From: an uncultured Bacilli bacterium
Lineage (GTDB): Bacteria; Bacillota_I; Bacilli_A; RF39; UBA660
NCBI GenBank assembly: GCA_947631515.1
Contig: CANRLP010000001.1
Coordinates: forward strand, 223 to 64,222
Direction: 5' to 3'
Length of the DNA stretch: 64,000 bases
Of the stretch, positions 21,572 to 61,941 are shown piece by piece. Made by a program: the position numbers and the translations under genes. Below the pieces are notes generated by a model that was not told where the DNA came from, did not search any database, and was given only the letters and a program-made list of their open reading frames with translations. The number at the start of each line of letters is the position of its first letter. Within the stretch, counting starts at the first letter, position 1.

Positions 21572-22279
21572 TCACTTCCTAAAAATATTTTTATAACTGG
21601 ATATATTTTCAATAAATAAAGGTGAGCAAATTTTAACACCATTATTTGCCCCTTTAATACATTTTAACAAAACTATATTAGCACTTTTATCGTTTTTTGT
21701 ATAAACAAATTGAATTTTTTTAGCTTTTATGTGATATTTTTCACATAAATATAATATTTCTTCTAATCTTTCAGGAAGATGAACTAAATAAAAACTACCT
21801 TTATTTTTTAAAGTATAACTAACTATACGAAATAAATCTTCTAAACATAAATTTATTTCATGTCGAGCAACAGCTTTAATTGAATTACTATTTATCAACG
21901 ATGAATTTTGGTATTTATAATAAGGTGGATTAGCTACTATAACATTAAAATTATTTCCCGGGAAATAATTTTGGATATTTTTTATATCATCATTAATTAT
22001 ATTTATTTGTTTTTCTTTATGATTTAACAAGATAGATTCTTGAGCTAATAAGCTGATTTCTTTTTGCAATTCAAAAGAAGTTATTTTGTTTTGAAAATAA
22101 TAAGATAATATTAATGAAACGGCACAATTTCCCCCACATAATTCCAGTATCTTATCATTTTTATTCACACTATCCACAAATTCTGCTAATAATATTGAAT
22201 CTAAAGAAAATTTAAAGTATTTCTCATTTTGGGCAATTTTAAAATTTTCATAATCATATAAGTCATTAATTACTTTCAT
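21572..22279 (-). CDS. SAM-dependent N6-adenine methyltransferase (YabB/TrmN6-like)
   Basis: VIVANPPYY (NPPY) motif. Synteny with yaaT and holB. Confidence 0.6.
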   Translation of the reverse strand: MKVINDLYDYENFKIAQNEKYFKFSLDSILLAEFVDSVNKNDKILELCGGNCAVSLILSYYFQNKITSFELQKEISLLAQESILLNHKEKQINIINDDIKNIQNYFPGNNFNVIVANPPYYKYQNSSLINSNSIKAVARHEINLCLEDLFRIVSYTLKNKGSFYLVHLPERLEEILYLCEKYHIKAKKIQFVYTKNDKSANIVLLKCIKGANNGVKICSPLFIENISSYKNIFRK

Positions 22280-25044: not shown

Positions 25045-26701
25045 CTTTTTCTTGATTGAATATATTTATTATATCACTAGATTTTAATTCTTGGTGATTT
25101 TCTTCATTTGTATTTTTATTTTGGAATGTTTCTTTCAAAGTAGGTTCTTCTTGTATTTTATATTTATAATTATTTTTTAAATTTTCCATATATATATTTT
25201 TTTCTTTTTCCCATTGATTAAGGGATAAAGCTAAAAATTTTTTATTTGTATGAAATAAATTTTCATATTCTTGTTCAATTTGTTTTAAAGAGTAATTGAA
25301 TCTTTCTGCTACAGTTTTTTGGGAACTAGCCACAATATTTATATCATCTGATGCCAAGACAATATTACAATCAATAATAATTGCTTTTAGTTCAGGCGAA
25401 CTTATGTTTGTAATAAAATTTTGCCAATTATCTTTAGCTTTTTGTAAATGATTTTTATCAGCTTGAGCAAAGCAATTATTAATTCGAATAGGAATTAACT
25501 TTTCCAAATATTCAGGATTAATATTAGATGTTTCACGTGAAACATTATCTTTAATAGTTTCAACTTCTTTTTTTGGAACATTCTTTATTGGATTATCTTT
25601 AATTATTTTATCATCAGTTTCTGAGTGAGATATTGGTTTATTTATCATTGATTCTTTTGTAGTCATTTTATCTGCAAATATCATAAAAATTAACAAAAAT
25701 GGATCAATATTTATATTTATTTTATTTAATAAATCATTAAGTTCAAAAACTATATTTTTTATTTCATTATAATTAATATTATCATTTTTATTTTTAAAAT
25801 TTAAAGCTTTTATAAACAACTTATCAACTAATTTTTTTATAAAGGTTTTATAATCAACAGAACTTTGTTGTAGATTTTCAAAAATATTTTGAATTTGTTG
25901 AAAATCATTATTTAAATAAGCATCAATGATAGAATTTATTTGAATTAGTGAAACAGATCCATAATTATTTAAAACTGATTCTAATGTTATTGTAGCTTCA
26001 CTTGTTGATAACTGATTTAAAATACTTAAAGCATCTCTTAATCCACCCTCTGCTAAGTAAGTAATTTCTTTTAGAGCATCATCAGTTATTTCTATTTTTT
26101 CTTTTTGACATACATTTTTTAAATGATTAAAAATATCTTCATCAGTTATTTTTTTGAAATCATATCTTTGACAACGAGATAAAATAGTTATTGGTACACT
26201 TTCAATATTAGTTGTTGCTAAAATAAAAATTACATGTTTAGGTGGTTCTTCTAATGTTAATAACAAAGCATTAAAAGCACTTTGTGAAAGCATATGAACT
26301 TCATCTATAATATATACTTTATATTTACTAAATGAAGGAGTTATTTTAACATTATTAATAAGTTCTCTTATTTCATCAACTCCATTATTAGATGCGGCAT
26401 CTATCTCGATGATATCAGCATTTTGATTTATATTTTGACAATTAATACATGTTCCACATGGAACACCATTTTGTGGATTCTCACAATTAATTGTTTTTGC
26501 AAAAATCTTAGCTGTACTAGTTTTTCCTGTTCCTCTGGGTCCAGTAAAAATATAAGCATGAGATAATTTATTATTAATAATTGCATTTTTTAACATTTTT
26601 ATCGTAAATTTTTGACCAATAATTTCGTCAAAATTAGTTGGACGATATTTTCTATAAAGTACCTTATAATCTGTTTCCATAAGCTTTTTCCTCACCAGCA
26701 T
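25031..26701 (-). CDS. dnaX: DNA polymerase III subunit tau/gamma
   Basis: GPRGTGKTS Walker A, zinc module C..C..C.C, IIDEVHML. Confidence 0.95.
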   Translation of the reverse strand: MLVRKKLMETDYKVLYRKYRPTNFDEIIGQKFTIKMLKNAIINNKLSHAYIFTGPRGTGKTSTAKIFAKTINCENPQNGVPCGTCINCQNINQNADIIEIDAASNNGVDEIRELINNVKITPSFSKYKVYIIDEVHMLSQSAFNALLLTLEEPPKHVIFILATTNIESVPITILSRCQRYDFKKITDEDIFNHLKNVCQKEKIEITDDALKEITYLAEGGLRDALSILNQLSTSEATITLESVLNNYGSVSLIQINSIIDAYLNNDFQQIQNIFENLQQSSVDYKTFIKKLVDKLFIKALNFKNKNDNINYNEIKNIVFELNDLLNKININIDPFLLIFMIFADKMTTKESMINKPISHSETDDKIIKDNPIKNVPKKEVETIKDNVSRETSNINPEYLEKLIPIRINNCFAQADKNHLQKAKDNWQNFITNISSPELKAIIIDCNIVLASDDINIVASSQKTVAERFNYSLKQIEQEYENLFHTNKKFLALSLNQWEKEKNIYMENLKNNYKYKIQEEPTLKETFQNKNTNEENHQELKSSDIINIFNQEKVEIQ

Positions 26702-26725
26702 TTATTATAACATAAAAAGTTATAA

Positions 26726-27151
26726 TTACCTTTTATTTTTAAAAAAAGTTGTTAATATTTGTTGATAATTACTAATAAATTTTTCATTGTCTTTATATAT
26801 CATTTCAGTTTTATCATATTCCTTTTTATTTTCAGGTTTATTCAAATAATAATAGACACATTTTATTCGACTTTGTTTAATAATATTGTTACACATGGAA
26901 CATGGTTTTAATGATACATACATTGAGCAATCACTTAAATTCCATCTTTTTAATTTTTTTGCAGCTTTTTTAATAGCAATTACTTCGGCATGAGCAGTAA
27001 CATCATGCAATTTTTCTCTTTTATTATAAGCCGAAGAGATAATTTTATTTTTATAGATAATTAAAGCAGATATAGGAACTTCTTTTCTTCGTGCGGCTTT
27101 TTGAGCTAATTTTATTAATTTTTTTAGAATTATATTTTCATTCATAATCAT
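26726..27151 (-). CDS. tadA: tRNA-specific adenosine deaminase
   Basis: HAEVIAI...PCSMC zinc motif. The ORF-track N-terminus (to 27292) overlaps the SRP RNA. Likely start is one of the ATGs at 27157, 27151 or 27145. Confidence 0.8.
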   Translation of the reverse strand: MIMNENIILKKLIKLAQKAARRKEVPISALIIYKNKIISSAYNKREKLHDVTAHAEVIAIKKAAKKLKRWNLSDCSMYVSLKPCSMCNNIIKQSRIKCVYYYLNKPENKKEYDKTEMIYKDNEKFISNYQQILTTFFKNKR

Positions 27152-27159
27152 CACCATAA

Positions 27160-27250
27160 AAAAAGTGCACACGAATAGGGATTGATATGGCTGCTGTCTT
27201 CCAACTCTGACCAGATTACAATATATCCGTTGCACTTTGTAATGATAACA
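27160..27250 (-). ncRNA. ffs: signal recognition particle RNA (small 4.5S type)
   Basis: Minus-strand CUGGUCAGAGUUGGAAGACAGCAGCCA matches SRP domain IV (CAGGUCAGGUCCGGAAGGAAGCAGCC). Closing helix AAAGUGCA/UGCACUUU. Position between gyrA and tadA-dnaX, as scr is in Bacillus. Confidence 0.7.
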
Positions 27251-27315
27251 TTTTATTATATTTAATGCAACATGTTTCACGTGGAACATCAATTATAATT
27301 TAATTTATTTTTACT

Positions 27316-27344
27316 AAAAAAAATATGTTTCACGTGAAACATAT
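27316..27344 (-). terminator. gyrA intrinsic terminator (perfect palindrome ATATGTTTCACGTGAAACATAT plus U-run)
   Basis: The hairpin starts 1 nt after the gyrA stop and is followed by 8 T on the minus strand. Confidence 0.7.
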
Positions 27345-32889: not shown

Positions 32890-33363
32890 TTAAGCATTTT
32901 TTTGTATCTTTTTTTCAAGTTTTCGGCCATTTAAGACAGATTCTAAGCGCGTAGCCCTCATAACTTGATTATCCACAATTCCATATGTGGTATCTAATGA
33001 TAATTTATCGCCATTTTTAAATACTACTATTAAATGATTTTTTTCATAATAGTAGCGATCAATACTACTAAGTCTTAACCACGAGCATTCTGGAAGTCTA
33101 GGAGAAGTTGTGGGAAAAAATATTATACTATTGCTTTCTTCAACTATAATGGGAGCTTTGTAAGAAACTCCAATTAAATTTTCTGTTCCTTTTTTTCTTC
33201 CAGCTAAACTACTTCCAAAATATTCACAACTTTCTTCCATAATTTCATTAGCACACTTATTAACAATGAAATTAGAATCTTCTTCATATACTCGTGTTTT
33301 ATTTCCCATAGCATATAAAGCAACGGTATTATTATTAATTTCATAATTTTCCATCCATTTCAC
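32890..33363 (-). CDS. comK: ComK-family competence transcription factor homolog
   Basis: YEINNNTVAL, FGSSLAGRKKGT, KAPIIVEESNSIIFFPTTSPRLPECSW align to B. subtilis ComK (FGSSYAGRKAGT; KPPIMVDPSNQIFLFPTLSSTRPQCGW). AGGGGG RBS. Confidence 0.75.
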   Translation of the reverse strand: MKWMENYEINNNTVALYAMGNKTRVYEEDSNFIVNKCANEIMEESCEYFGSSLAGRKKGTENLIGVSYKAPIIVEESNSIIFFPTTSPRLPECSWLRLSSIDRYYYEKNHLIVVFKNGDKLSLDTTYGIVDNQVMRATRLESVLNGRKLEKKIQKNA

Positions 33364-34571: not shown

Positions 34572-34726
34572 TGTTCATTCCTTCTTTCTTTTTATTAATT
34601 TATTTTATTATGTTTATAATGCTGTTGATAAAGTGAATAACTCTATTTTTTCTTTATTTTATCGTATTTTAGCTATTTTTTTATTAGTGCATAAGCAAGT
34701 TTATTTTAAGTTAATTATCAACAATA
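34572..34726. promoter_or_regulatory. dnaA-dnaN intergenic DnaA-box cluster / AT-rich unwinding region (oriC part 2)
   Basis: TGTTGATAA (~34644) and TTATCAACA (~34706) boxes in a very AT-rich 155-bp spacer. Confidence 0.55.
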
Positions 34727-36118
34727 TTAAATTCTATTCTTAATTTCATTAATTTCAAATTCTATTTTTTTATTTTCCTTAATCTCCTTTTCAATTTTTT
34801 CATAAGCATGAATTACTGTTGAATGATCTCTTCCGCCAAATTCAAAACCTATTTTAGGAAAAGTTTCTTCGGTTAGCATTCTTGCTAAATACATGCCAAT
34901 TTGTCGTGGATAAGCAATTTTATTACTCCTTTTCTTACCTTTCAAATCTTCAACTGTTAAATTGTAATAACTTGCTACAGCTTGTTGAATATTTTGAATA
35001 CTATTTTCTGAGTAAATGTTATTACCTATATAGTCTTTAATTGCTTCATTGGCAAATTCTAAATCTATTTTATCTGGTACCATCATAGCTGTATAAGCCA
35101 TTAATCTATTTAAAGTTCCTTCTAGAAATCTTATATCATTAGGACAACAATTAGCAATAAATTCAATAACTGTTTCATCTAATTTGTCTGCTATACTGGT
35201 ATTTTTAATTTTTTGTTTTATGATTCGACAACGTAAATCTAAGTCTGGAGGATAAATATTAACAGGTAATCCCCACATAAAACGGCTTTGTAATCTTTCT
35301 TCTAATAATTTTAAATCCATAGGACTTCGATCAGAACTAATAATAATTTGTTTATTAGCTTGATGTAAAATATTAAAAGTATAAAAGAATTCTTGTTGGG
35401 TTTTTTCGGCCCCTACTAAGTATTGAATATCATCAATAATTAAGACATCAACATTTCGATATTTGTTTTTAAAATTATTGGCATAATCAATGGAATTCGG
35501 CCCTTTTTCAACATAAGCAATTCCCGTAAAATCATTCATAAACATATCACTTGTTGTGTATAAAACTTTTTTATTGGTCGTTTGAGTTATAAAGTTTCCA
35601 ATGGCATGCATTAAATGAGTTTTACCTAATCCACTTTTTCCATATATAAATAAAGGATTATGTAATTTTCCAGGTTGTTCAGCTACTGCCATCGCCGCAA
35701 TTTTAGCCAAACGATTTGTATCACCTACTACAAAGTTATCAAAATTAAGATTTGGCTTTAAATTACTTTCCCAAACTTCATTCTGCTCTTCTTTTTCTTT
35801 GGTTTGTGGATAAGTATCTATAGGAGTATTTTTATTTTCGATTTCATCTTCTAAAACAAATTTAATATCATAATTTATATTGGTTATTTTTAATAAAATA
35901 TCTTCAATTAATGAATAATAATTGTCACTTAAAATATTTCGGTGAATATCCATAGGGACTTGAATAGTTATTAAATTATTTTCAATGCTAATTAATTTTA
36001 AGTCATTAAACCAAGCATAATAAGATGCTGAATTTATCTCATTTTTAATATTTTCTAAAAATTTATTCCATATTTCTTCAACTAACAAATCCATCACCCC
36101 GCTTGTTATTATTACCAA
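34727..36118 (-). CDS. dnaA: chromosomal replication initiator DnaA
   Basis: AAA+ GKSGLGKTHL, box VII, C-terminal DNA-binding signature. Confidence 0.97.
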   Translation of the reverse strand: MVIITSGVMDLLVEEIWNKFLENIKNEINSASYYAWFNDLKLISIENNLITIQVPMDIHRNILSDNYYSLIEDILLKITNINYDIKFVLEDEIENKNTPIDTYPQTKEKEEQNEVWESNLKPNLNFDNFVVGDTNRLAKIAAMAVAEQPGKLHNPLFIYGKSGLGKTHLMHAIGNFITQTTNKKVLYTTSDMFMNDFTGIAYVEKGPNSIDYANNFKNKYRNVDVLIIDDIQYLVGAEKTQQEFFYTFNILHQANKQIIISSDRSPMDLKLLEERLQSRFMWGLPVNIYPPDLDLRCRIIKQKIKNTSIADKLDETVIEFIANCCPNDIRFLEGTLNRLMAYTAMMVPDKIDLEFANEAIKDYIGNNIYSENSIQNIQQAVASYYNLTVEDLKGKKRSNKIAYPRQIGMYLARMLTEETFPKIGFEFGGRDHSTVIHAYEKIEKEIKENKKIEFEINEIKNRI

Positions 36119-36449
36119 TTTAATTGTAGCTCAAACCACTTAAATTGAAAAGTCTAAAATAATTATTCACTCTAATTCACATGTTATCAACAGCAAATTT
36201 TTCCTTATTCTATCTGATTTTAGAATATTTATCAACATTATCCACAAATTTTCAAATAATTTTTATGCACATTGTTTATATAATTTATCAACAATAATGT
36301 TAATATGTTGATAAAGACTAAATTTCCTTTAATTTAATGATTAGATATAAACATTTTTATAAACTAGTGTATTTTTCAAACATCTTCTTGACTTTTTTTA
36401 TGCACTAATATTATAATAAGGAAGCTTAGATTTAAAGGAGGAAGAAAAA
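36119..36449. promoter_or_regulatory. oriC DnaA-box cluster between dnaA and rpmH
   Basis: Perfect TTATCCACA at 36238-36246. TTATCAACA at 36184-36192, 36229-36237 and 36285-36293, and TGTTGATAA at 36306-36314. The coding strand switches here. Confidence 0.75.
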
Positions 36450-37898: not shown

Positions 37899-38510
37899 AT
37901 GAAAGAAGTAGAATTAAGTGCTAAATCAAAAGAAGAGGCTTTAAAAAAAGTAGAAGAAGCTTTAAATGCTAGTGTAGATGAAATTATTTATCATATAACT
38001 GAAGAAAAAGGTAAGTTATTTAAGAGTCCAACTTACACTATTAAAGCTATTACATATGATGAAGTAAATAAAATAATTTTGGCATATTTAGAAGAAGTAA
38101 TTAAAAATTTAGGATTACATCCTACTATTGAATCTAAGATAGTTGAAAAAAAATTTGAGATACAAATGACTTCTGATAATAATCCTCTTTTAATTGGTAA
38201 GAATGGTCAAACTTTAAAAGCTTTAGAAGTATTAGCTAGACAATACATATTTAATAAATATAAATATTATATAAACATTAATATAGATATTGAAAATTAT
38301 AAAGAAAAACGTATTAAAAATTTAGAATATTTAGCTAAAAAAACTGCTAAAGAAGTTGTTATTACTCAAATAGAAGTAAAATTAGAAAACATGAATTCTT
38401 TTGAAAGAAGAATTGTTCATAATTCATTAACTGATTTTAAAGGTGTTACAACATTAAGTGAAGGAGAAGAACCTAATCGCCATGTTATAATCAAACCTGT
38501 TGCTAAATAA
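37899..38510 (+). CDS. jag: Jag/KhpB (KH + R3H RNA-binding protein)
   Basis: Jag-N, KH and R3H (NSFERRIVHN) motifs. Synteny. Confidence 0.85.
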   Translation: MKEVELSAKSKEEALKKVEEALNASVDEIIYHITEEKGKLFKSPTYTIKAITYDEVNKIILAYLEEVIKNLGLHPTIESKIVEKKFEIQMTSDNNPLLIGKNGQTLKALEVLARQYIFNKYKYYININIDIENYKEKRIKNLEYLAKKTAKEVVITQIEVKLENMNSFERRIVHNSLTDFKGVTTLSEGEEPNRHVIIKPVAK

Positions 38511-38597
38511 GCAATGGGTTTTTATATTAGTTATCAACAAATTATTTCCCGGGAAATATTTTTGTGTTATAATACCCACGAAAAAGGAAGTGCTAAC

Positions 38598-39953
38598 ATG
38601 AACGATAATGATACTATTGTTGCTATTTCTTCAGCTATGGGAAAAGGAGCAATTTCTATTATTCGATTAAGTGGAGAAAATTCAATTTCTATAGTTAATA
38701 AAATATTTAAAGGCAAAGATTTAAGTAAAGTACAATCTCATACTATTCATTATGGTTTTATAGTTGATGAAGAAAAAGAAATAGATGAAGTTCTTGTATC
38801 TGTAATGCTAGCTCCCAAAACTTATACTACAGAAGATATTGTGGAAATTAATTGTCATGGTGGTATATCTACAACTAATAAAGTTTTAGAATTAGTTATT
38901 AAAAATGGTGCACGTCTGGCTGAACCAGGGGAATTTACTAAAAGGGCATTTTTAAATGGGCGAATTAATTTAGTAGAGGCTGAAGCGGTTGGTGATTTAA
39001 TTGCTGCCAAAAGTGAAAAACAAAGAGCTGTAGCAATTAATGGGGTAAATGGTCGTTTAACTAAATTAATATCCAAGCAAAGAACAATTTTATTAGATTT
39101 ATTAGCTAATATTGCTGTTAATATTGATTATCCTGAATATGATGATGCTCTTGTTGTAACTGAAGAATATTTAAAAGAAAAATTGACAAATATTAAATTA
39201 GATTTAGAAATTTTATTAGAAAATGCGAAAATTGGTAAAATTATTAAATCAGGTATAGATATAGCTATAGTAGGAAGACCAAATGTTGGTAAAAGTAGTT
39301 TATTAAATGCTTTTTTAAATGAAGATAAAGCAATAGTTACCGATATATCAGGTACAACAAGAGATATAATAGAAGCAACAACTAACTTAAACGGAATTGA
39401 AATTAACTTAATAGATACCGCGGGAATAAGAAAAACAGATGATTTAGTAGAAAAAATAGGTGTTGATAAAAGTAAAAAAATAATAGATACTGCTGATTTA
39501 ATTATTTTAGTATTAAATAATAATGAGTTATTAACTAAAGAAGATGAAGAATTATTACAAAAAGTTTCCAAAAAACCTCATATTATTTTTGTTAATAAAA
39601 ATGATTTAGCAAAAAAATTAGAATTACCAAAAAATATAAAAAGTATCATGGGAAATACTCAAGAGTTAAATGGTTTAGAAGCTTTAAAAAAAGAAATTAT
39701 TACTATGTATAATTTAGATAAAATAGATGAAAAAGATAGTACTTACTTATCTAATATTCGTCAAATAAATTTAGTAAAAGAAGCTCTAGAAGAAATAAAT
39801 ATTGCTTTAACTGATCTTTCAAACCATATTCCTATTGATATGTTAGAAATTCATATTCGTTCTTCTTGGGAAAAATTAGGTATTTTAATTGGAGAAAATT
39901 ATGAAGATGAATTAATAGATAAATTATTTAAAAATTTTTGTTTAGGAAAGTAG
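38598..39953 (+). CDS. mnmE: tRNA modification GTPase MnmE
   Basis: GRPNVGKSSLLN, DTAG, C-terminal CLGK. Start at ATG 38598 after AAAGGAAG RBS. The ORF-track start at 38514 runs through the promoter. Confidence 0.93.
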   Translation: MNDNDTIVAISSAMGKGAISIIRLSGENSISIVNKIFKGKDLSKVQSHTIHYGFIVDEEKEIDEVLVSVMLAPKTYTTEDIVEINCHGGISTTNKVLELVIKNGARLAEPGEFTKRAFLNGRINLVEAEAVGDLIAAKSEKQRAVAINGVNGRLTKLISKQRTILLDLLANIAVNIDYPEYDDALVVTEEYLKEKLTNIKLDLEILLENAKIGKIIKSGIDIAIVGRPNVGKSSLLNAFLNEDKAIVTDISGTTRDIIEATTNLNGIEINLIDTAGIRKTDDLVEKIGVDKSKKIIDTADLIILVLNNNELLTKEDEELLQKVSKKPHIIFVNKNDLAKKLELPKNIKSIMGNTQELNGLEALKKEIITMYNLDKIDEKDSTYLSNIRQINLVKEALEEINIALTDLSNHIPIDMLEIHIRSSWEKLGILIGENYEDELIDKLFKNFCLGK

Positions 39954-39961
39954 ATGAAAAT

Positions 39962-41827
39962 ATGAAATATGACATTATAGTTGTTGGTGGTGGCCATGCT
40001 GGTTGTGAAGCTTCTCACATCGCCGGATTTATGGGTAAAAAAACTTTACTTATTACCATGAATAAACAAAATATCGCTGATATGCCTTGTAATCCTTCAA
40101 TTGGAGGAACAGCCAAAGGAATTATAGTTCGAGATATTGATGCCTTAGGGGGATTAATGGGTAAAATAGCTGATAAGTCTCACTTTCAAATGAAAATGTT
40201 AAATAGTAAAAAAGGTCCAGCAGTTCAATCTCTTCGTTGTCAAGCTGATAAAAAATTATATCCTCGCAATATGTTAGCAGCTTTAGAAGAAACATCTAAT
40301 TTAGAAATTATGGAAGGTCTTGTAGAAGATATAATTGTCAAAAATAATAAAATAGAAGGAATAATTTTAAATAATAAAGAAAAAATCTTTTGTGATGCCT
40401 TAATTTTAACCACAGGAACTTATTTAAAAAGTAATATTTTAAGGGGTGCTAAAAACACCAAAGGAGGACCTCATGGTGAGGGAAGAAGTAATTTTTTAAG
40501 TGATAATTTAAGAAAGTTAGGATTTACAATTCAAAGATTAAAAACTGGTACTCCTCCTCGAATAAAAAAAGATTCAATAGATTTTTCAAAATGTCAAGAA
40601 GAGTTAGGTGACCATAAATATTATACATTTTCTCATGATGATGAACCATTTTACGATATTGATAAACAAGAAAAATGTTATTTGGTTTATACTAATGCTA
40701 AAACTCATGAAATCATTTTAAATAATTTAGATAAATCTAGTATGTATGGTGGATATGTAACAGGTATAGGACCTAGATATTGTCCTTCTATCGAAGATAA
40801 AATTGTTCGTTTTAAAGATAAGGAAAGACATCAACTATTTTTAGAGCCGGAAAGTAAAGAGTATGATGAATGGTATTTACAAGGTTTTTCGACTAGTATG
40901 CCTGAAGATATTCAAGAACAAATGGTTCATAGTTTAAGTGGCTTAGAAAATGCAGTAATAACTAAATATGCTTATGCTATTGAATATGACGCTATTGATC
41001 CTTTACAAATGAAACCTTCTTTGGAATCGAAAGTTGTGGAAAATATTTTTACGGCTGGTCAAATTAATGGAACAAGTGGTTATGAAGAAGCTGCCGGACA
41101 AGGTTTAATAGCTGGTATAAATGCAGTTTGTAAATTAAATCAAACTCAACCTCTAATTTTAAAAAGAAATGAATCTTATATAGGAGTTTTAATTGATGAT
41201 TTAGTAACAAAAGGTACAAAAGAACCATATCGCATGTTAACATCAAGAGCGGAATATCGTTTATTACTTCGCCATGACAATGCCATTCTACGTTTGCGGC
41301 CCATTGCCCATAAATATCAAACAATAACTGATAAAATGTATCAAAATTATTTAAATTTGGTAACAGATATTGAAAAGTTAAAAAAATTCTTAACTAATAC
41401 CAAATTAGAATTGACTAATGAAAATAAAAAACTATTTATTCAAAATAATTATCAATTACCTCCTAATAAAATAAGTTTTTTAGATTTATTAAAAAGACCT
41501 GAAATTACAATGGAATTTTTAAATCAGTTTACCAATATAGATTTTCCTATAAATGTAAAAGAAGAAGTAGAAATTGAAATTAAATATGAAGGGTATATAA
41601 AAAAGACGGAAAAAGAAATAAGTAAAATGTTAAAATTAGAAGAAAAACAAATTCCTTCTGATATTGATTATCAAAAAGTTAAAAATTTAGCAAGTGAAGC
41701 TCGTCAAAAACTAGAGCAAATTAGACCTTTATCAATTGGCCAAGCAGCTCGAATTAGTGGTGTTAATCCGGCAGATATCTCTATTTTAGCTGTCTATTTA
41801 AAAAGGGAATATAGTAAAGATGAATAA
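39962..41827 (+). CDS. mnmG: tRNA uridine 5-carboxymethylaminomethyl modification enzyme MnmG
   Basis: MKYDIIVVGGGHAGCEA FAD motif. The ORF-track TTG start at 39938 overlaps mnmE. Confidence 0.95.
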   Translation: MKYDIIVVGGGHAGCEASHIAGFMGKKTLLITMNKQNIADMPCNPSIGGTAKGIIVRDIDALGGLMGKIADKSHFQMKMLNSKKGPAVQSLRCQADKKLYPRNMLAALEETSNLEIMEGLVEDIIVKNNKIEGIILNNKEKIFCDALILTTGTYLKSNILRGAKNTKGGPHGEGRSNFLSDNLRKLGFTIQRLKTGTPPRIKKDSIDFSKCQEELGDHKYYTFSHDDEPFYDIDKQEKCYLVYTNAKTHEIILNNLDKSSMYGGYVTGIGPRYCPSIEDKIVRFKDKERHQLFLEPESKEYDEWYLQGFSTSMPEDIQEQMVHSLSGLENAVITKYAYAIEYDAIDPLQMKPSLESKVVENIFTAGQINGTSGYEEAAGQGLIAGINAVCKLNQTQPLILKRNESYIGVLIDDLVTKGTKEPYRMLTSRAEYRLLLRHDNAILRLRPIAHKYQTITDKMYQNYLNLVTDIEKLKKFLTNTKLELTNENKKLFIQNNYQLPPNKISFLDLLKRPEITMEFLNQFTNIDFPINVKEEVEIEIKYEGYIKKTEKEISKMLKLEEKQIPSDIDYQKVKNLASEARQKLEQIRPLSIGQAARISGVNPADISILAVYLKREYSKDE

Positions 41828-42524
41828 ACAAGAATTTCTTAATGCTTTGAAAAAAATGGCAATAAATATCACAGAAGAACAATTAAATAGTTTAGAAACT
41901 TATAAAAATCTTCTTATTGAATATAATAAACATACTAATTTAACAGCTATTAAAGATGAAGAAAGTATATTTTTAAAACATTTTTATGATTCACTTACTA
42001 TTAATAAATATTTAAAAAATAACGAATTAGTTTTAGATATTGGAACAGGTGCTGGATTTCCTGGCATGGTCTTAGCTATTATAAATCCAAATATCAATTT
42101 TGTATTACTTGATTCTAACAATAAAAAGATTAAATTTTTGGAATATTTAAATAATAATTTAAATTTAAAAAATGTAACTTTTGTTAATCAAAGAGCAGAA
42201 GATTATGTGCATGGAAATCGGGAAAAATTTGATATTGTAACTTCTCGAGCAGTAGCTGATTTGCGCATATTATCAGAATTATCACTTCCTGCTTTAAAAA
42301 TAGGAGGTCTTTTTGTAGCGATGAAAGGCGATATTTCTGAGGAATTAAATAATTCTCGGGAGACTATTAATATTTTAGGAGGAAGCATTCAAAAAATTGA
42401 AAAAATCCTATTACCTTTCGAGAATAGTAATAGAACAATAATAACTATCTCACATAATTTCAAAACAAATGAACTTTATCCAAGAAGCTACGACAAAATT
42501 CTTAAAAAGCCATTGAAAAAATAA
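41820..42524 (+). CDS. rsmG: 16S rRNA (guanine527-N7)-methyltransferase
   Basis: DIGTGAGFPG SAM motif. Overlaps mnmG by 8 nt. Confidence 0.93.
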   Translation: MNKQEFLNALKKMAINITEEQLNSLETYKNLLIEYNKHTNLTAIKDEESIFLKHFYDSLTINKYLKNNELVLDIGTGAGFPGMVLAIINPNINFVLLDSNNKKIKFLEYLNNNLNLKNVTFVNQRAEDYVHGNREKFDIVTSRAVADLRILSELSLPALKIGGLFVAMKGDISEELNNSRETINILGGSIQKIEKILLPFENSNRTIITISHNFKTNELYPRSYDKILKKPLKK

Positions 42525-42568: not shown

Positions 42569-43924
42569 ATGAATATGGATAAAAATATTCAAGAAATCCC
42601 AATTGAGGATATAATTCCTAATAGATTTCAACCAAGACTTGCATTCAATGAAGAAGGATTGAATGAACTTTCTGATTCCATAAAACAACATGGAATAATT
42701 CAACCCCTTGTTGTACGTAAACTTGGCGATAAATATGAAATAATTGCTGGAGAAAGAAGATATAAAGCTGCTACTCAAGCCGGATTAACTAAAGTGCCTG
42801 CTATAATTTCTGATATAGATGATAATAAAAGCGCCGAGGTAGCTTTAGTAGAAAATATTCAAAGAAGAAATTTAACAGCTATTGAAGAAGCTAAATCATA
42901 TAAAAATTTATTAGACAGAGGTTATTTAACTCAAGAACAATTAGCAGCAAAGATGGGAGTATCTCAATCTTCAATTGCAAATAAATTAAGACTATTAAAC
43001 TTAGCTCCAGAAGTTCAAGATGCCTTATTAAATGAAAAAATATCAGAACGTCATGCTCGAGCATTGTTAAGTTTAGATGATATGGAAGAGCAAAAAAAAT
43101 GGTTACAAAAAATAATTGATGAACGTATGACTGTTCGGCAATTAGATATGGAATTAAAAAAATATAAAGAAGATCCTGATGACGAAGGAAATGATATACC
43201 TTTAGTTAATATAAATCCCGATATAGATAGCATTTTAAATAGTGCAGAAGATATTAATGTTACTAGAGAAGCACACGATGTAGCTAGTATGTTAATGCCG
43301 GACCAAGCCATGAATCAAAATGAAGTTACTGACCAAAATTTGCCACCAGAATCACCTTCAAAAATGCCTAATAAATTCTTTAATTTTTTAGAAGATGAAC
43401 AAGCAAATATGGATATTGGTGAACCTGATGAGATATTTACGAATTTTACTCCAACTTCTTTAGAAGAATCAGAACCAAAAATTCCAGAAAATACTATGCA
43501 ATCTGTAGAAGTATTAGATGATTTAGATAATATCGATACTGATGATAAGCCTGAAGATACGACACCATCAACACCTCAAGAATTACCGGAAGAACCACAA
43601 AATGTTGAGTCTTTTGAAAATATATTTGAATCGACACCAAACTTAGAAAATAATTCTACGGAAATTGTAAACGAACCAATAAGTCAACCAGTAGTAAAAG
43701 AAAATACTTTTGTAGATCCTATGGATAGTGTTGTAAAATTAGAACCAGATTATGAAGAAAAACAAGAAGAATTAGCTGGCACGGATTTAAAAAGTGCAAT
43801 AAATACTATTAGAGAAACAATTGATGCGCTAAATAAAAAAGGATTTACAATAGAAATGGAAGAAGCCGATTTAGAAGATTTGTATCATATAACAATTAAA
43901 ATCGATAAAAACCAAGAAGAGTAA
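42569..43924 (+). CDS. ParB/Noc-like nucleoid partition/occlusion protein with long acidic disordered insert
   Basis: ParB N-terminal box IAGERRYKAA, HTH (QEQLAAKMGVSQSSIANKLRLL). A ~180-aa D/E/P-rich low-complexity region follows, then a short C-terminal domain. No parA downstream. Confidence 0.8.
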   Translation: MNMDKNIQEIPIEDIIPNRFQPRLAFNEEGLNELSDSIKQHGIIQPLVVRKLGDKYEIIAGERRYKAATQAGLTKVPAIISDIDDNKSAEVALVENIQRRNLTAIEEAKSYKNLLDRGYLTQEQLAAKMGVSQSSIANKLRLLNLAPEVQDALLNEKISERHARALLSLDDMEEQKKWLQKIIDERMTVRQLDMELKKYKEDPDDEGNDIPLVNINPDIDSILNSAEDINVTREAHDVASMLMPDQAMNQNEVTDQNLPPESPSKMPNKFFNFLEDEQANMDIGEPDEIFTNFTPTSLEESEPKIPENTMQSVEVLDDLDNIDTDDKPEDTTPSTPQELPEEPQNVESFENIFESTPNLENNSTEIVNEPISQPVVKENTFVDPMDSVVKLEPDYEEKQEELAGTDLKSAINTIRETIDALNKKGFTIEMEEADLEDLYHITIKIDKNQEE

Positions 43925-43996: not shown

Positions 43997-45311
43997 ATGA
44001 AGAAAGCAAAAAATAACCTCCCAACCAGACTAACTCTGGGGGGGTATATCAAATAAGAAAGAAGACCTAGAGTTAGAAAAGTTTACTAAGAACAAAAAAA
44101 GAAAATTTATTTTAATAGGATTAATATTAGGAATAAGCGTAACTATTGGTGGAATATTCTTATATAAAAGTTATGCCTATTATGAAAATGAAAAAGAGTA
44201 TAACGTAATAAAAGGAATAATACCCGATTTTTCGTATGATGTGAAGTTTGCCATAACCGTGGATGATGAAACAAAAGAATCAATCCCAACAGAGCCAAAA
44301 GATGCTAACAAATCAAATTATTATAAAGTAACGGCTACTTGTGATAATGGTATAAAAGCAGAATGGGATTATAATGCCTGGAACTTAAAAGTAGAAGATA
44401 TTCAAAAAGGAACAAAATGTAAATTAGCATTTAATAGTACCTTAACCGAAGCAGATTACAAAAATTACATTGACGCAGGAGTTGCATATAGAAGAAATAC
44501 ATATAGAGGCAAAGATATTACCAGTAAATTAAAAGATGGTAGTTTATTCACAGAAATAGAGAGTGGTCATTTCGACGATATATTTGTTGGAGATTACATA
44601 ACAAGTTCAAGTGGCCAAAAAGATTTAAGTAACAAAACAGTAGTATGGTTAATAGCTGATCTAGATAATTATTTATATACTGGAGACGGAGGTATTGTGT
44701 TAAATAAGCATCATGCGACAATAATACCAGCAATTCCTTTAATGAAAGCTTCAATGAATTCCACGAATACAACTGTAGGAGGATATGCCGGAAGTGAAAT
44801 GGTAGGGTATGAAGTAGACGAAAATGGAAAAGCTACCCAAGAGAAAAAAGAAGAAGGAGGAACATTAGATACAGTATTAAGTAAATATATAGAGCCTGAT
44901 TTTGGAGCTAGTAATCCTAGTGGTGATAAACAAAATCATATAATAGAATATCGAAATATAATAACTGTTCAAGTGGATAAAACAAGAACAAATCGATTTG
45001 GACTTACCGATGGTACAAGCTCTAATTTTGAATGGTATAATAGAAAATTAGATTTCATGAGTGAAATGAATGTGTATGGAGGAATCATTTGGTCATCATC
45101 AGGCAGAGATATCGGCATAGACAATATGCAATATGCCATATTTCAACTAAAGCCAGGTTTTAGAGATTCTTACGGAACTTATAGATTTCATTACTGGTTA
45201 AAAGATGTAGCCAAAATGAATAATTTTGCGTATTCCGACGCCTATGGTGTGTCGGGCGTCTACGGTGCGAATGGCCTTATTGGAGTCCGCCCCAGATTCT
45301 TAATCGGTTAA
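43997..45311 (+). CDS. hypothetical membrane-anchored (type II) secreted protein; reading frame interrupted at an A7 homopolymer (44093-44099)
   Basis: ATG 43997 with GAGGAGG RBS encodes MKKAKNNLPTRLTLGGISNKKEDLELEKFTKNKK in frame 2. The frame-0 ORF opens at 44076, encodes TM helix FILIGLILGISVTIGGIFLY, and continues 44241-45311. Deleting one A in the A7 tract fuses the two. No in-frame ATG exists for the downstream part. Confidence 0.55.
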
Positions 45312-51377: not shown

Positions 51378-54062
<2,685 letters not shown>

Positions 54063-54063
54063 A

Positions 54064-54627
54064 TTATTCCTCCTTAAAGTATATTTCATCCACAACTTTT
54101 AAATAATCGAGAGGTGGACGATAACCATATTTAATCAAATATCCCGTATTTTGAATAAATGAATAAGGGATGCTTTTACGATTGTTATTATCTATAAATT
54201 CAATAAAATCAAAACCTTTTAATAAATATACTAAATCATTAATTTTTATAATTAAAAATACAATTCCTTGATGTCTTAATATATTTCTAATATGATTTAT
54301 TTGATGATGATGGATATTGGCTAGAGGAAAAGATGTTTTATTTTGGGTAACTTTAGCTTCAAATTCAATATATTTGCCCCGATAAAGGCCATTATAGTCG
54401 AGGGTTGATTGTTCTTTAAAGTAACCTTTTTCAATTACTTTTCCGTGTAAATTATATGAAACATTAGCAACTCCGATGGGAGTAGGTTTTTTATAAATAT
54501 AAGCTTTATCAATTTCAATATAGTATTCGTTACTTAAATTTAACTCTTCTTCTAAATCCATTCCACGGTTTTTATAGGAAATAGGGGTTTGGTGCACGTC
54601 TTTTTTTATGTTATTTGGATAATTCAT
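54064..54627 (-). CDS. recU: Holliday junction resolvase RecU
   Basis: RecU family length and motifs. recU-ponA operon as in Bacillus. Confidence 0.85.
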   Translation of the reverse strand: MNYPNNIKKDVHQTPISYKNRGMDLEEELNLSNEYYIEIDKAYIYKKPTPIGVANVSYNLHGKVIEKGYFKEQSTLDYNGLYRGKYIEFEAKVTQNKTSFPLANIHHHQINHIRNILRHQGIVFLIIKINDLVYLLKGFDFIEFIDNNNRKSIPYSFIQNTGYLIKYGYRPPLDYLKVVDEIYFKEE

Positions 54628-54968
54628 AAAACCACCTATTAAAATTATACTATATTTTCTTTGATTTTACTATAATTAAGGAAAGAGATTGACAAAAATC
54701 TTTTTGCTATCTTTTGTCGAATTTATTTCAATTATTTTACAATTTAGTAAGATGGTTATTAGAAGGTGAATGTATGTTTAGAATGGAAGTTTTTTTGAAT
54801 GATATGATTGAAAAAATTAATGAGGCCGAATTATTAATAGATAGTAAAAAAATAAAAGTTCAGGAAAAATAAATTTTTATAAAGCATATAATATAAGTAA
54901 TAGTATACTCCATAACTTGACAATTTTACTACTTATTTATTATAATTAGGACGTAAGAAGGTGGTAGA

Positions 54969-55301
54969 ATGTATAGTGAAAAAGTTACTTTAACCAAAGA
55001 AGATATCTTGAATAAAGATTTTAAGGTTGATGCAAGAGGATATCGTCCTCAAGAAGTAGATGATTTTTTAGATACAATTATTGATGATTATACAGCTTAT
55101 ACTACCATTATTAGAAGACAGGAAAATGAAATCCGGGCTTTAACAGAAGATAATATTAAATTAAAACAAGAATATCATAAACTTCGGAGTCGTTTAGAAG
55201 CGGCAGAAGATGCTTCTTCTAATTCAAGTCCTGTTAATAATGTTGATTTGTTAAGAAGAATTAGTCAACTTGAAAAAATTGTATTTGGAAAAAATGAATA
55301 A
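54969..55301 (+). CDS. gpsB: cell-cycle protein GpsB (DivIVA-domain)
   Basis: LTKEDILNKDFKVDARGYRPQEVDDFLD matches the GpsB N-terminus. Followed by rnpB, as in B. subtilis. Confidence 0.88.
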   Translation: MYSEKVTLTKEDILNKDFKVDARGYRPQEVDDFLDTIIDDYTAYTTIIRRQENEIRALTEDNIKLKQEYHKLRSRLEAAEDASSNSSPVNNVDLLRRISQLEKIVFGKNE

Positions 55302-55650
55302 TTTGTAGGCAAATGCTGCATTTTTAAAAAAATGTAGAGGAAAGTCCATGCTCACACAGTCTGTGATGATTGTAGTGTTCGTGCTTAGGGAAAAAATAAC
55401 CTAAGGCAAAAAATTTTTTTGACGGCGGAAAATTTACCTTAAATGGTAATAGTATCCATAAAGTGCCAAAGAGACGAGCTTGCTTGGAAACGAGCAAGGA
55501 TGGAACGTGGTAAACCCCGCGAGTGAGAAACCCAAAATTTGGTAGGGGAGTTTTTGCTGATAAGAAGAATGAAGCAAAAAAGAGTAATCTAGATAAATAT
55601 TTGCCACACGAATTTTTCGTGTACAGAACATGGCTTATTCAGGTTATTTA
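55300..55650 (+). ncRNA. rnpB: RNase P RNA, type B
   Basis: GAGGAAAGTCCATGCTCACAC...GTGTTCGTGC and AGTGCCA..GACGA....GGAACG.GGTAAACCCC.CGAG.GAGAAACCCAAA.TTGGTAGGGGA plus ACAGAACATGGCTTA match the B. subtilis M1 RNA. T-run at 55650-55659. Confidence 0.88.
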
Positions 55651-55683
55651 TTTTTTTTATTTACAAAAAAGGAGTGAAAAATC

Positions 55684-56154
55684 TTGAACGAAATTGGTGA
55701 ACTCTTTCGAGTGACCAGGGAGGATGCTGGAGTATCAATTAATGAAGCCAGCAAAGATTTGGATATAAAAGAGGTTATTTTAGAAAATATCGAGGAAGGT
55801 AACATAGGGTGCTTTAAAGATATTTTTATATTAAAAGATTATATTTATGATTATGCTAAATATTTGGGAATAAATCCTGATAAAATTATTGATGACTTTA
55901 ATGAGTATATGTTTGAATATACTTCTAAAATACCAGTCAAAGAAATTGAACGTCAAATAGAAGAACAAGAAGCTAGACAAGAAAAAAAAGAAATATCTTC
56001 TCCATATACAGTTCAATCTAAAAAGAAAAATCGCAATTTTTATATTATTCTTTATTCTGTAATTATTTTTCTTTTAGTTTTAGTTGTTTTTTGGAGTGTT
56101 AAACAAATAACAGTTAATCAAGCGACAACTTCAGTAATTAGTTATGTAAAATAG
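55684..56154 (+). CDS. rodZ: RodZ-like XRE-HTH membrane protein (YmfM-like)
   Basis: N-terminal HTH, single TM near the C-terminus. Position before pgsA. TTG start with GGAG RBS. Confidence 0.6.
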   Translation: MNEIGELFRVTREDAGVSINEASKDLDIKEVILENIEEGNIGCFKDIFILKDYIYDYAKYLGINPDKIIDDFNEYMFEYTSKIPVKEIERQIEEQEARQEKKEISSPYTVQSKKKNRNFYIILYSVIIFLLVLVVFWSVKQITVNQATTSVISYVK

Positions 56155-56165
56155 GAGTGATACTA

Positions 56166-56759
56166 ATGAATTTACCTAATAAAATAACCATATCAAGAAT
56201 AATTTTATCGATTATAACTTTAATACTTTTAGTTATTCCGTGGTATCAATTTGGTATACCAACAAAAACTTTTGTTATTGCCGGAAAAATTGTTGTGAAT
56301 GTTAAATATTTAATTGCCGGTTTTTTCTTTATAATTGCTTCTGTAACTGATTTTTTAGATGGTTACTTAGCAAGAAGTCGTAATATGGTAACCGATTTTG
56401 GAAAAGTTATGGATGCGATTGCTGATAAGATTTTGGTTAATGGAGTTTTAATTATTTTGGCTTGCCAAGGCTTTATTAGTGTGTTAGTACCTCTTATTAT
56501 TATTACGCGAGATACATTTGTGGATTCAATTAAAATGGCTAGTGGTAATAAGGGTAAAGTAGTAGCAGCAAGTTATTTAGGCAAAGCAAAAACTATGTGT
56601 ATGATGATCGGTGTTTCTTTGATGTTATTTTATAATTTACCATTTGAACTTATTGGAATACCTGTAGCTGATATTTTAATTATTGTAGCTTGTATATTAT
56701 CTGTTGTATCAGGATGTCAATATTATTATAATGCTAAGGATTTAATTTTTTCCAAATAG
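56166..56759 (+). CDS. pgsA: CDP-diacylglycerol--glycerol-3-phosphate 3-phosphatidyltransferase
   Basis: MNLPNKITISRI, DFLDGYLARSRN CDP-alcohol phosphatidyltransferase motif. Confidence 0.92.
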   Translation: MNLPNKITISRIILSIITLILLVIPWYQFGIPTKTFVIAGKIVVNVKYLIAGFFFIIASVTDFLDGYLARSRNMVTDFGKVMDAIADKILVNGVLIILACQGFISVLVPLIIITRDTFVDSIKMASGNKGKVVAASYLGKAKTMCMMIGVSLMLFYNLPFELIGIPVADILIIVACILSVVSGCQYYYNAKDLIFSK

Positions 56760-61503: not shown

Positions 61504-61941
61504 GTGAAAAAAATGATACAAAATAAAAAGGGATTTACATTAGTAGAACTTATGGCAGTAATTGTAATTTTAGCGATTATTATTACCGTTGCTTCTTCTA
61601 GTATTTTTGCCACAGTCAATAGAGCTAAAAAAGGAACAGCTGAAGAGATGCGTGGTAGTCTATCGGATATTGCAATCACCTATGTTTTGGATAATTATCA
61701 CTTAAAAAAATGCTCTGATAGTTTTTCCAAAGAAATGATTCAAGGTAAAACAACTAATTTAGCAACTAATGGTAATTGTGCTAAAAAAATTACAGTTGAT
61801 ACTTTAATAAAAGAAGGTTTATTTGAAGATAAAAAGGGATATTGTAAGAATACTGATTTTGTAATTGTCTATCGTTATTCTAATGGTGATGATAGTGAAT
61901 ATAAAGCTTATGCATCTGATACTGTGTGTACTAATTTTTAA
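61504..61941 (+). CDS. type IV prepilin / competence pseudopilin (ComGC-like), stand-alone
   Basis: Class III signal KKG|FTLVELMAVIVILAIIITVA, followed by a Cys-containing C-terminal globular domain. Confidence 0.75.
   Translation: MKKMIQNKKGFTLVELMAVIVILAIIITVASSSIFATVNRAKKGTAEEMRGSLSDIAITYVLDNYHLKKCSDSFSKEMIQGKTTNLATNGNCAKKITVDTLIKEGLFEDKKGYCKNTDFVIVYRYSNGDDSEYKAYASDTVCTNF

Follow-up and report, generated by a model that had tools for sequence, protein, structure and literature searches.

The 64-kb window studied here, the whole 64,000-nt stretch from contig CANRLP010000001.1 of an uncultured Bacilli bacterium, carries a complete ParB-family gene directly after rsmG/gidB. Its product is assigned to the Noc clade, from which it departs in having a long acidic linker and in lacking the N-terminal membrane helix. 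We compared it with a related set of 80 loci, each covering 10 kb either side of noc; the window and these loci together amount to 1.42 Mb of DNA at 27.8% guanine plus cytosine (GC). The gene and the parts of its product (CTP, cytidine triphosphate) are the following.

42569 to 43924, + strand: complete Noc-clade ParB-family gene with an ATG start, 451 residues (Pfam, NCBIfam and PDB matches)
42569 to 43168, + strand: residues 1-200, CTP-binding N-terminal domain and helix-turn-helix DNA-binding domain (Pfam, PDB alignment, AlphaFold)
43178 to 43750, + strand: residues ~204-394, acidic, proline-rich linker, predicted to be disordered, with conserved short motifs (composition, predicted local distance difference test (pLDDT), family comparison)
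43358 to 43411, + strand: residues ~264-281, SKMPNKFFNFLEDEQANM, invariant motif and candidate amphipathic helix (48-sequence alignment, hydrophobic moment)
43751 to 43921, + strand: residues ~395-451, Noc-type C-terminal (dimerisation) domain (match to the Noc model, AlphaFold)

Architecture of the protein and its family

The start codon at 42569 is secure: going upstream, an in-frame stop is reached after 30 codons without an ATG, GTG or TTG in between, and a Shine-Dalgarno-like AAAGGGG sits about 10 nt 5' of the ATG. Pfam places ParB_N at residues 6-98 (E 6e-36) and HTH_ParB at residues 101-200 (E 8e-34). A preliminary description, made from the letters of this DNA, had allotted about 230 N-terminal residues to the ParB box and helix-turn-helix; both domains are present, and the folded part ends near residue 200. 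AlphaFold2, run on an alignment of 48 sequences, is confident at residues 1-201 and 395-445. The C-terminal domain is predicted with a pLDDT of 78-92 and a helix-helix-strand-strand fold. In the linker, pLDDT falls below 50 at residues 205-212, 246-262 and 289-378, and weak helices are predicted at residues 219-225, 239-242 and 271-280.

Residues 206-400 consist of 15% glutamate, 11% asparagine, 11% proline and 10% aspartate, and their net charge is -41. The acidic, proline-rich disordered insert proposed in the preliminary description is real, with about 195 residues and a pLDDT mostly below 50, and the short structured C-terminus that it placed after the insert matches the Noc model. Its picture of low-complexity sequence holds for composition and fails for uniformity, since five islands (residues ~209-244, 264-282, 313-320, 348-354 and 372-400) are conserved among 120 homologues. 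These islands, one of which includes an invariant 14-residue motif, show that the linker is under purifying selection. When residues 204-395 are deleted, the rest gives a single unbroken match to all 255 positions of NCBIfam TIGR04285. The long stretch is therefore an insertion between the DNA-binding and C-terminal domains and not ordinary conserved ParB sequence, a possibility that the preliminary description had raised against itself.

The family comprises at least 270 homologues, 120 listed by a word-indexed search and 150 listed by an exhaustive search of representatives at 50% identity; the family counts given here rest on the matches listed. The first search found at least 120 homologues of 400-639 residues, and the second at least 150 more, nearly all of 325-686 residues, with a few shorter and apparently truncated. 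Both flanking domains can be delimited in 219 members, in which the linker spans 88-436 residues (median 211). In all 219 it is net acidic (-0.05 to -0.25 per residue) and contains about 10% proline. Homologues are publicly annotated as 'ParB/RepB/Spo0J family partition protein', and an assignment to Noc would correct what is likely a database annotation as a generic partition protein.

How the linker arose was considered at two levels. The open reading frame (ORF) contains no tandem repeats or long direct repeats, its direct repeats being only 19-27-nt pairs at 74-84% identity, and origin by repeat expansion of the DNA was rejected. Duplication of the N-terminal domain is likewise unsupported; hhalign matched only five columns (MPNKF to IPNRF, E 0.28).

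Noc-type residues and the absent N-terminal helix

TIGR04285 (nucleoid_noc) is a Noc-specific NCBIfam 'exception' model whose curated cut-off of 315 bits separates Noc from Spo0J. The native protein stays below it at 306 bits; without residues 204-395 it scores 318.2 bits over model positions 1-255. The generic ParB model gives the native protein 189 bits. The C-terminal 60 residues, searched by themselves, match positions 205-255 of the Noc model (E 2.7e-8). The alignment for paralogy suggested in the preliminary description places the protein closer to Noc than to Spo0J: among PDB sequences, Noc of Geobacillus and Bacillus match at 206 and 180 bits versus 164-174 for Spo0J/ParB. The best PDB matches by both sequence and fold are the Noc entries 7ng0, 7nfu and 7ol9, and Noc chains make up the first five Foldseek matches, slightly ahead of ParB.

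Four residues set specificity for the Noc-binding site (NBS) versus parS, and in Bacillus subtilis Noc these are Q158, K164, K169 and R186 (Jalal et al. 2020, PMC7383237). According to the same study, ParB carries R at the first of these positions, where no parS-specific variant lacks it, and G at the last. Q and R together give NBS recognition with at least one permissive K, and the second permissive lysine is almost invariably K in Noc (PMC7383237). The equivalents here, taken from the PDB alignment, are Q133, K139, N144 and R161, so three of the four are Noc-type. Across the 270 members, Q is found in 268, K in 266, N in 233 and R in 269, and the combination QKNR in 229. The position that reads parS (R173 in Caulobacter numbering) is Q133 here and not R.

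The CTP-binding residues are present as G61 E62 R63 R64 and E95 N96, and both GERR and the E-N pair are kept in 270 of 270 members. Within the GERRxRA motif, R91 of Noc is replaced by K66, whereas the equivalents of R89 and N121 are kept. Noc depends on the equivalents of these CTP-motif residues to bind CTP and to clamp (PMC8429893, PMC4331003). On the evidence of its match to the family model, its specificity residues and the cognate NBS described below, the protein is by sequence a member of the Noc clade and not a chromosome-partitioning ParB. The label 'ParB/Noc-like, no ParA partner' in the preliminary description is right about ParA and undersells the assignment.

In Noc, the extreme N-terminus (~residues 1-15) is very highly conserved, and removal of 10 N-terminal residues abolishes function (Adams et al. 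2015, PMC4331003). The N-terminus acts as a helix whose membrane-binding activity is controlled by CTP (Jalal et al. 2021, PMC8429893). Canonical N-termini read MKHSFSRFFGLGEKEQ in B. subtilis and MKHPFSRLFSFGEKEQ in Geobacillus, with close variants in about 18 further sequences and the consensus MKHpFSRFFGlGEKE. The canonical N-termini used for a profile came from a search with a 74-residue Noc N-terminus, in which the matches listed were all fragments of at most 121 residues. The protein here starts MNMDKNIQEIPIEDIIPNRFQPR, with PNRFQPR following after 17 residues; in the PDB alignment its residue 6 is paired with residue 27-28 of Noc. About 22 N-terminal residues of Noc, including the membrane helix, are therefore missing. 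No FSRFF-like N-terminus occurs in any of the 270 members, nearly all of which start within a few residues of the same point. The N-terminal helix, which is regarded as defining for the Noc mechanism, is absent from the whole clade. This is probably the most unusual feature of the protein, and the preliminary description had passed over it.

Binding sites, the origin region and neighbouring genes

The following sites were found in the window.

38543 to 38558, unstranded: perfect 16-bp NBS TATTTCCCGGGAAATA between jag and mnmE, 4 kb upstream of the gene, predicted cognate loading site
21952 to 21967, unstranded: second perfect 16-bp NBS, within a methyltransferase-like ORF (site scan)
25529 to 27341, unstranded: cluster of five parS sites with at most one mismatch (0 in 100 shuffles)

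Cognate NBS were sought as ATTTCCCGGGAAAT. The two perfect sites in the window compare with 0.01 expected, and both lie within 21 kb of the gene. Perfect NBS 14-mers number 21 in the window plus the 80 loci versus 0.003 expected, and the sampled DNA holds about one NBS every 57 kb. In about 17 related loci, a site with at most one mismatch stands in the corresponding place, about 4 kb upstream of the gene. The presence of these sites and their positional conservation are direct observations, and the protein is predicted to bind them.

The site at 38543-38558 lies between a terminator-like hairpin 3' of jag (38493-38521) and an extended -10-like element, TGTGTTATAAT (TGnTATAAT-like), which precedes the likely true mnmE ATG at 38598 by about 25 nt; the mechanically called mnmE start at 38514 is probably too early. 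A DnaA-box-like TTATCAACA (38531-38539) abuts the conserved NBS. Noc may influence transcription of mnmE-mnmG-rsmG-noc from this site.

The scan for parS and NBS sites that the preliminary description had put forward also returned the five parS sites, which start at 25529, 26450, 26887, 27273 and 27326. Three are perfect, reading TGTTTCACGTGAAACA at 25529 and 27326 and TGTTTCACGTGGAACA at 27273, and those at 26450 and 26887 have one mismatch. The cluster starts directly 3' of gyrA, spans the signal recognition particle (SRP) RNA gene (ffs), tadA and dnaX, and lies 15-17 kb from noc. A parS cluster after gyrA is also found in four related loci (L035, L050, L065 and L078). Given five parS sites and the Q at the parS-reading position of the protein here, a parS-binding ParB is probably encoded outside the window, which implies that the cluster is read by a different protein, a genuine ParB elsewhere in the genome. 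The preliminary description's count of a single ParB-like gene would thus stand for the window and not for the genome. Within the cluster, a 188-residue tadA-like ORF (26726-27292, - strand) overlaps the small SRP RNA gene (27156-27241, - strand; RF00169, 56.9 bits). Its true start is probably downstream of the RNA gene, since the deaminase domain begins only at residue 50.

A six-frame search of the window and the 80 loci gave no Walker A motif (KGGxGK[ST]), which bears out the earlier remark that soj/parA does not stand alongside. To our knowledge Noc never has a ParA partner, so a missing ParA is what one would expect. Searched with a profile built on the N-terminal domain of the family, the window and the 80 loci gave no second ParB-like ORF, apart from one weak match in L014 (19404-20354, + strand; 316 residues, 40 bits, about 8 kb 3' of noc). 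This ORF is too divergent for Spo0J and may belong to a mobile element. A 253-residue ORF after noc in L078, of the same length as Soj, was rejected as Soj because it reads as a short-chain dehydrogenase. The ParA-binding motif of ParB is an N-terminal (L/F/I)G[KR]G(L/F/I) (PMC12704722), which is absent from the query and all 270 members.

As the preliminary description stated, rsmG/gidB precedes the gene (41820-42524; Pfam GidB, E 8e-52). The origin block has dnaA (34727-36118, - strand) running one way and rnpA-yidC-jag-mnmE-mnmG-rsmG the other, and the GC-skew minimum lies near 36 kb, between the dnaA and rnpA blocks. Six DnaA-box-like 9-mers occur at 36184-36314 in the dnaA-rnpA intergenic region, and two at 34623-34723 in the dnaA-dnaN spacer. 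These clusters coincide with the skew minimum and likely represent a bipartite oriC, about 6 kb from noc. The order rnpA-yidC-jag-mnmE-mnmG-rsmG-noc is kept in about 65 of the 80 related genomes.

In L035, L050, L065 and L078, dnaA-dnaN-recF-gyrB-gyrA-parS comes after rsmG-noc on the same strand, with the short-chain dehydrogenase gene between noc and dnaA in L078; the window is unlike those four in that its two blocks diverge from oriC. Directly 3' of noc in the window is a 356-residue ORF (44241-45311, + strand) that matches nothing in Pfam or NCBIfam and has a counterpart in only one of the 80 loci (L018). This ORF seems specific to the lineage, and gene order 3' of noc is not kept across the clade. 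Between recF and dnaN stands a ComK-family ORF (32890-33363, - strand; Pfam ComK, E 1.6e-40), for which L078 has a counterpart of about 150 residues in the same slot, and a prepilin/ComGC-like ORF is at 61504-61941. The ComK and ComGC-like ORFs hint at natural competence.

GC content across the window is 23-32%, and long ORFs are obtained under the standard code (table 11). The interval 51378-56759 encodes a PBP1A-family penicillin-binding protein, RecU, GpsB, a RodZ-like protein and PgsA, and a class B RNase P RNA is found at 55301-55641. Given PBP1A, GpsB, the RodZ-like protein and PgsA, the organism is a walled Firmicute that divides with conventional machinery and makes anionic phospholipids, and such a cell could plausibly use nucleoid occlusion. 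Among the close relatives, metagenome-assembled genomes that carry the labels uncultured Bacilli, Tenericutes or Erysipelotrichaceae, are Candidatus Ventrenecus and Candidatus Caccenecus; their sources are gut samples of rabbit, mouse, chicken, ruminants and humans (Hadza). Since the organism is walled, the label 'Tenericutes' on some of them is misleading.

The linker motif, competing readings and known systems

The linker motif at residues 264-281 includes K269, F270, F271, N272, F273, L274, E275, E277 and M281, all invariant in the 48-sequence alignment. Among 134 representative linkers with less than 50% mutual identity, [KR]FF occurs in 71, versus 2.9 in shuffled linkers, and it stands at variable distance from both flanking domains. 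The 11 residues from 264, SKMPNKFFNFL, have the highest hydrophobic moment in the linker (0.69-0.72), with a hydrophobicity of 0.5 and a net charge of +2, and form the only cationic patch in a linker of net charge -41. Residues 1-11 of B. subtilis Noc (0.50, 0.58, +2) and the membrane-targeting sequences of MinD are comparable. The predicted helix at 271-280 has a pLDDT of about 55-64 versus about 35 over most of the other linker. Aligned without gaps, KFFNFLEDEQ and the canonical RFFGLGEKEQ are alike at 5 of 10 positions, plus the R/K and L/F pairs. The KMPNKFFNFLEDEQ island, the most amphipathic patch of the linker, loosely resembles Noc FSRFFGLGEKEQ.

From these similarities it is conceivable, though we hold it doubtful, that across this clade of gut Bacilli the membrane helix of Noc was relocated to, or re-invented in, the middle of the linker, as KMPNKFFNFLEDEQ in place of canonical FSRFFGLGEKEQ. 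We offer this as a hypothesis drawn from biophysical similarity. The canonical helix is N-terminal, and CTP binding releases it from the N-terminal domain; if the hypothesis is true, the anchor would here sit mid-tether, and DNA would be coupled to the membrane in another geometry and probably under another form of control. The invariant polar residues and the acidic surroundings favour the main alternative, a motif that binds a partner. Should the motif instead recruit a division or segregation partner, the protein would be a Noc-derived adaptor. Statistical homology of the motif to the Noc N-terminal helix is not supported by phmmer or hhalign.

We suggest that the gene is probably the Noc orthologue of a low-GC, walled, uncultured gut bacterium within the Bacilli, in which the helix was lost and an acidic tether gained. 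In this scenario, the helix-turn-helix domain would read the palindromic NBS TATTTCCCGGGAAATA, and the intact CTP-binding N-terminal domain would close the dimer into a sliding clamp that spreads from the NBS, with the C-terminal domain holding the dimer together. The short linker between the DNA-binding and C-terminal domains would have grown into a disordered acidic tether of about 200 residues, adding reach and excluded volume. An effect of the linker on bridging or condensation, as put forward in the preliminary description, is speculative. The KMPNKFFNFLEDEQ motif, the most conserved in the linker, would be the best candidate for an element that links the clamp on DNA with the membrane or with some division-related partner. 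CTP-dependent clamping is presumably retained, and a role in division may be.

Other explanations have to be weighed against this one. That the long form is an artefact of assembly, frameshift or gene calling, or a decaying pseudogene with a junk linker, has practically no probability left. The linker is indeed highly variable in length (88-436 residues) and sequence. However, the reading frame is continuous and free of tandem or long direct repeats, the C-terminus is a genuine Noc C-terminus, and the linker islands include the invariant motif. At least 270 homologues of 330-686 residues, from independent assemblies, carry N-terminal domain, linker and C-terminal domain in one frame; this family-wide conservation of the architecture refutes the artefact reading, and with it the frameshift fusion of two ORFs that the preliminary description had allowed for. 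We also consider it very unlikely that the protein is a chromosomal ParB (Spo0J) that loads at the parS sites near oriC independently of ParA, its linker modulating condensation. In streptococci, ParB works without ParA. The five parS sites in the same origin region, the lack of another ParB-like ORF in the window or the 80 loci (bar the weak L014 match) and the intact CTP motifs would suit such a protein, and the native 451-residue protein scores 306 bits on TIGR04285, 9 below the cut-off of 315, a shortfall that we attribute to the cost of the insertion. Yet Q133 stands where parS-specific variants invariably have R, and R161 stands in place of the G typical of ParB. The Noc model gives 306-318 bits versus 189 for the generic ParB model, the C-terminal domain is Noc-type, and the ParA-binding motif is missing from the 270 members. 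Perfect, positionally conserved NBS sites, moreover, need a reader.

Besides that score, several points count against the Noc-orthologue reading and its linker-borne anchor. The second permissive lysine is replaced by N144, and a clear [KR]FF is missing in about half of the 134 representative linkers. A phmmer search of PDB with residues 249-297 did not retrieve Noc, and in an hhalign comparison of 20 canonical N-termini with the linker profile (P = 0.03) the best alignment was to a PFKSIFF motif instead. Because the motif precedes acidic residues and sits in a linker of charge -41, binding to anionic membranes is disfavoured. Given that helix-less Noc is non-functional (PMC4331003), the protein may not perform nucleoid occlusion at all. 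It could then be a Noc descendant outside nucleoid occlusion, a CTP-dependent clamp that serves as a regulator or organiser in the manner of KorB and has no membrane role, for instance by autoregulation of mnmE-mnmG-rsmG-noc from the conserved NBS or by recruiting a partner through the linker motifs. We regard this as unlikely. Its case is the family-wide loss of a helix required for Noc function, the acidic context, a conserved NBS between the jag hairpin and the TGnTATAAT-like element at the same place in many genomes, and the invariant polar residues N272, E275, E277 and N280, which suggest a specific protein contact over generic lipid binding. However, the promoter was read by eye, and a consensus scan omitted it and gave no promoter-like enrichment; an NBS about every 57 kb looks like chromosome-wide scatter rather than one operator. 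Conservation of the motif is also compatible with membrane binding, since the helix of Noc itself is extremely conserved (PMC4331003).

Searches of the accessible literature for long-linker or helix-less Noc returned no description of such a variant. The family is large, with at least 150 clusters at 50% identity, and is found in the guts of animals and humans in about 80 species-level genomes. It could serve as a natural experiment on whether membrane tethering is truly required for nucleoid occlusion, on linker length, and hence the size of the clamp lumen, in ParB-family clamps, and on the role of acidic disordered regions in proteins that slide on DNA.

Among known systems, the protein is most readily set beside Noc of B. 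subtilis and Geobacillus thermoleovorans (TIGR04285; 7ol9, 7nfu, 7ng0, 6y93), with which its N-terminal domain and helix-turn-helix are 50-53% identical. It shares with them the Noc-type C-terminal domain, the specificity residues Q, K and R, a 16-bp NBS palindrome in the genome, a gene directly after rsmG/gidB near oriC, and the lack of a ParA-binding motif. Unlike them, it is missing about 22 N-terminal residues with the amphipathic helix MKHSFSRFFG, has an acidic linker of about 195 residues, and has N144 for K169 in the set of four specificity residues. B. subtilis Noc is 283 residues long in total, with a short basic linker. The soj-spo0J pair that follows noc in Bacillus is absent after the gene in both the window and the 80 loci. 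Staphylococcus aureus likewise has noc behind gidB with no soj next to it, is not known to carry Soj/ParA in its genome, and has a Noc of presumably canonical length.

ParB/Spo0J (TIGR00180; 6sdk, 1vz0, 4umk) shares the fold, the CTP motifs and the order of N-terminal, helix-turn-helix and C-terminal domains. In contrast to it, the protein here has Q and R in place of R and G, has no N-terminal ParA-binding peptide, and scores lower to ParB than to Noc. KorB of plasmid RK2 (8qa8) presumably also has an extended flexible linker ahead of its C-terminal domain, and matches in fold (E ~5e-11) at only 26% identity. It differs in its DNA site, in being plasmid-borne and in its partner KorA, of which no counterpart was identified here. 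KorB is a ParB-family CTP-dependent clamp that has no ParA-stimulating role and acts in long-range regulation (PMC11790492).

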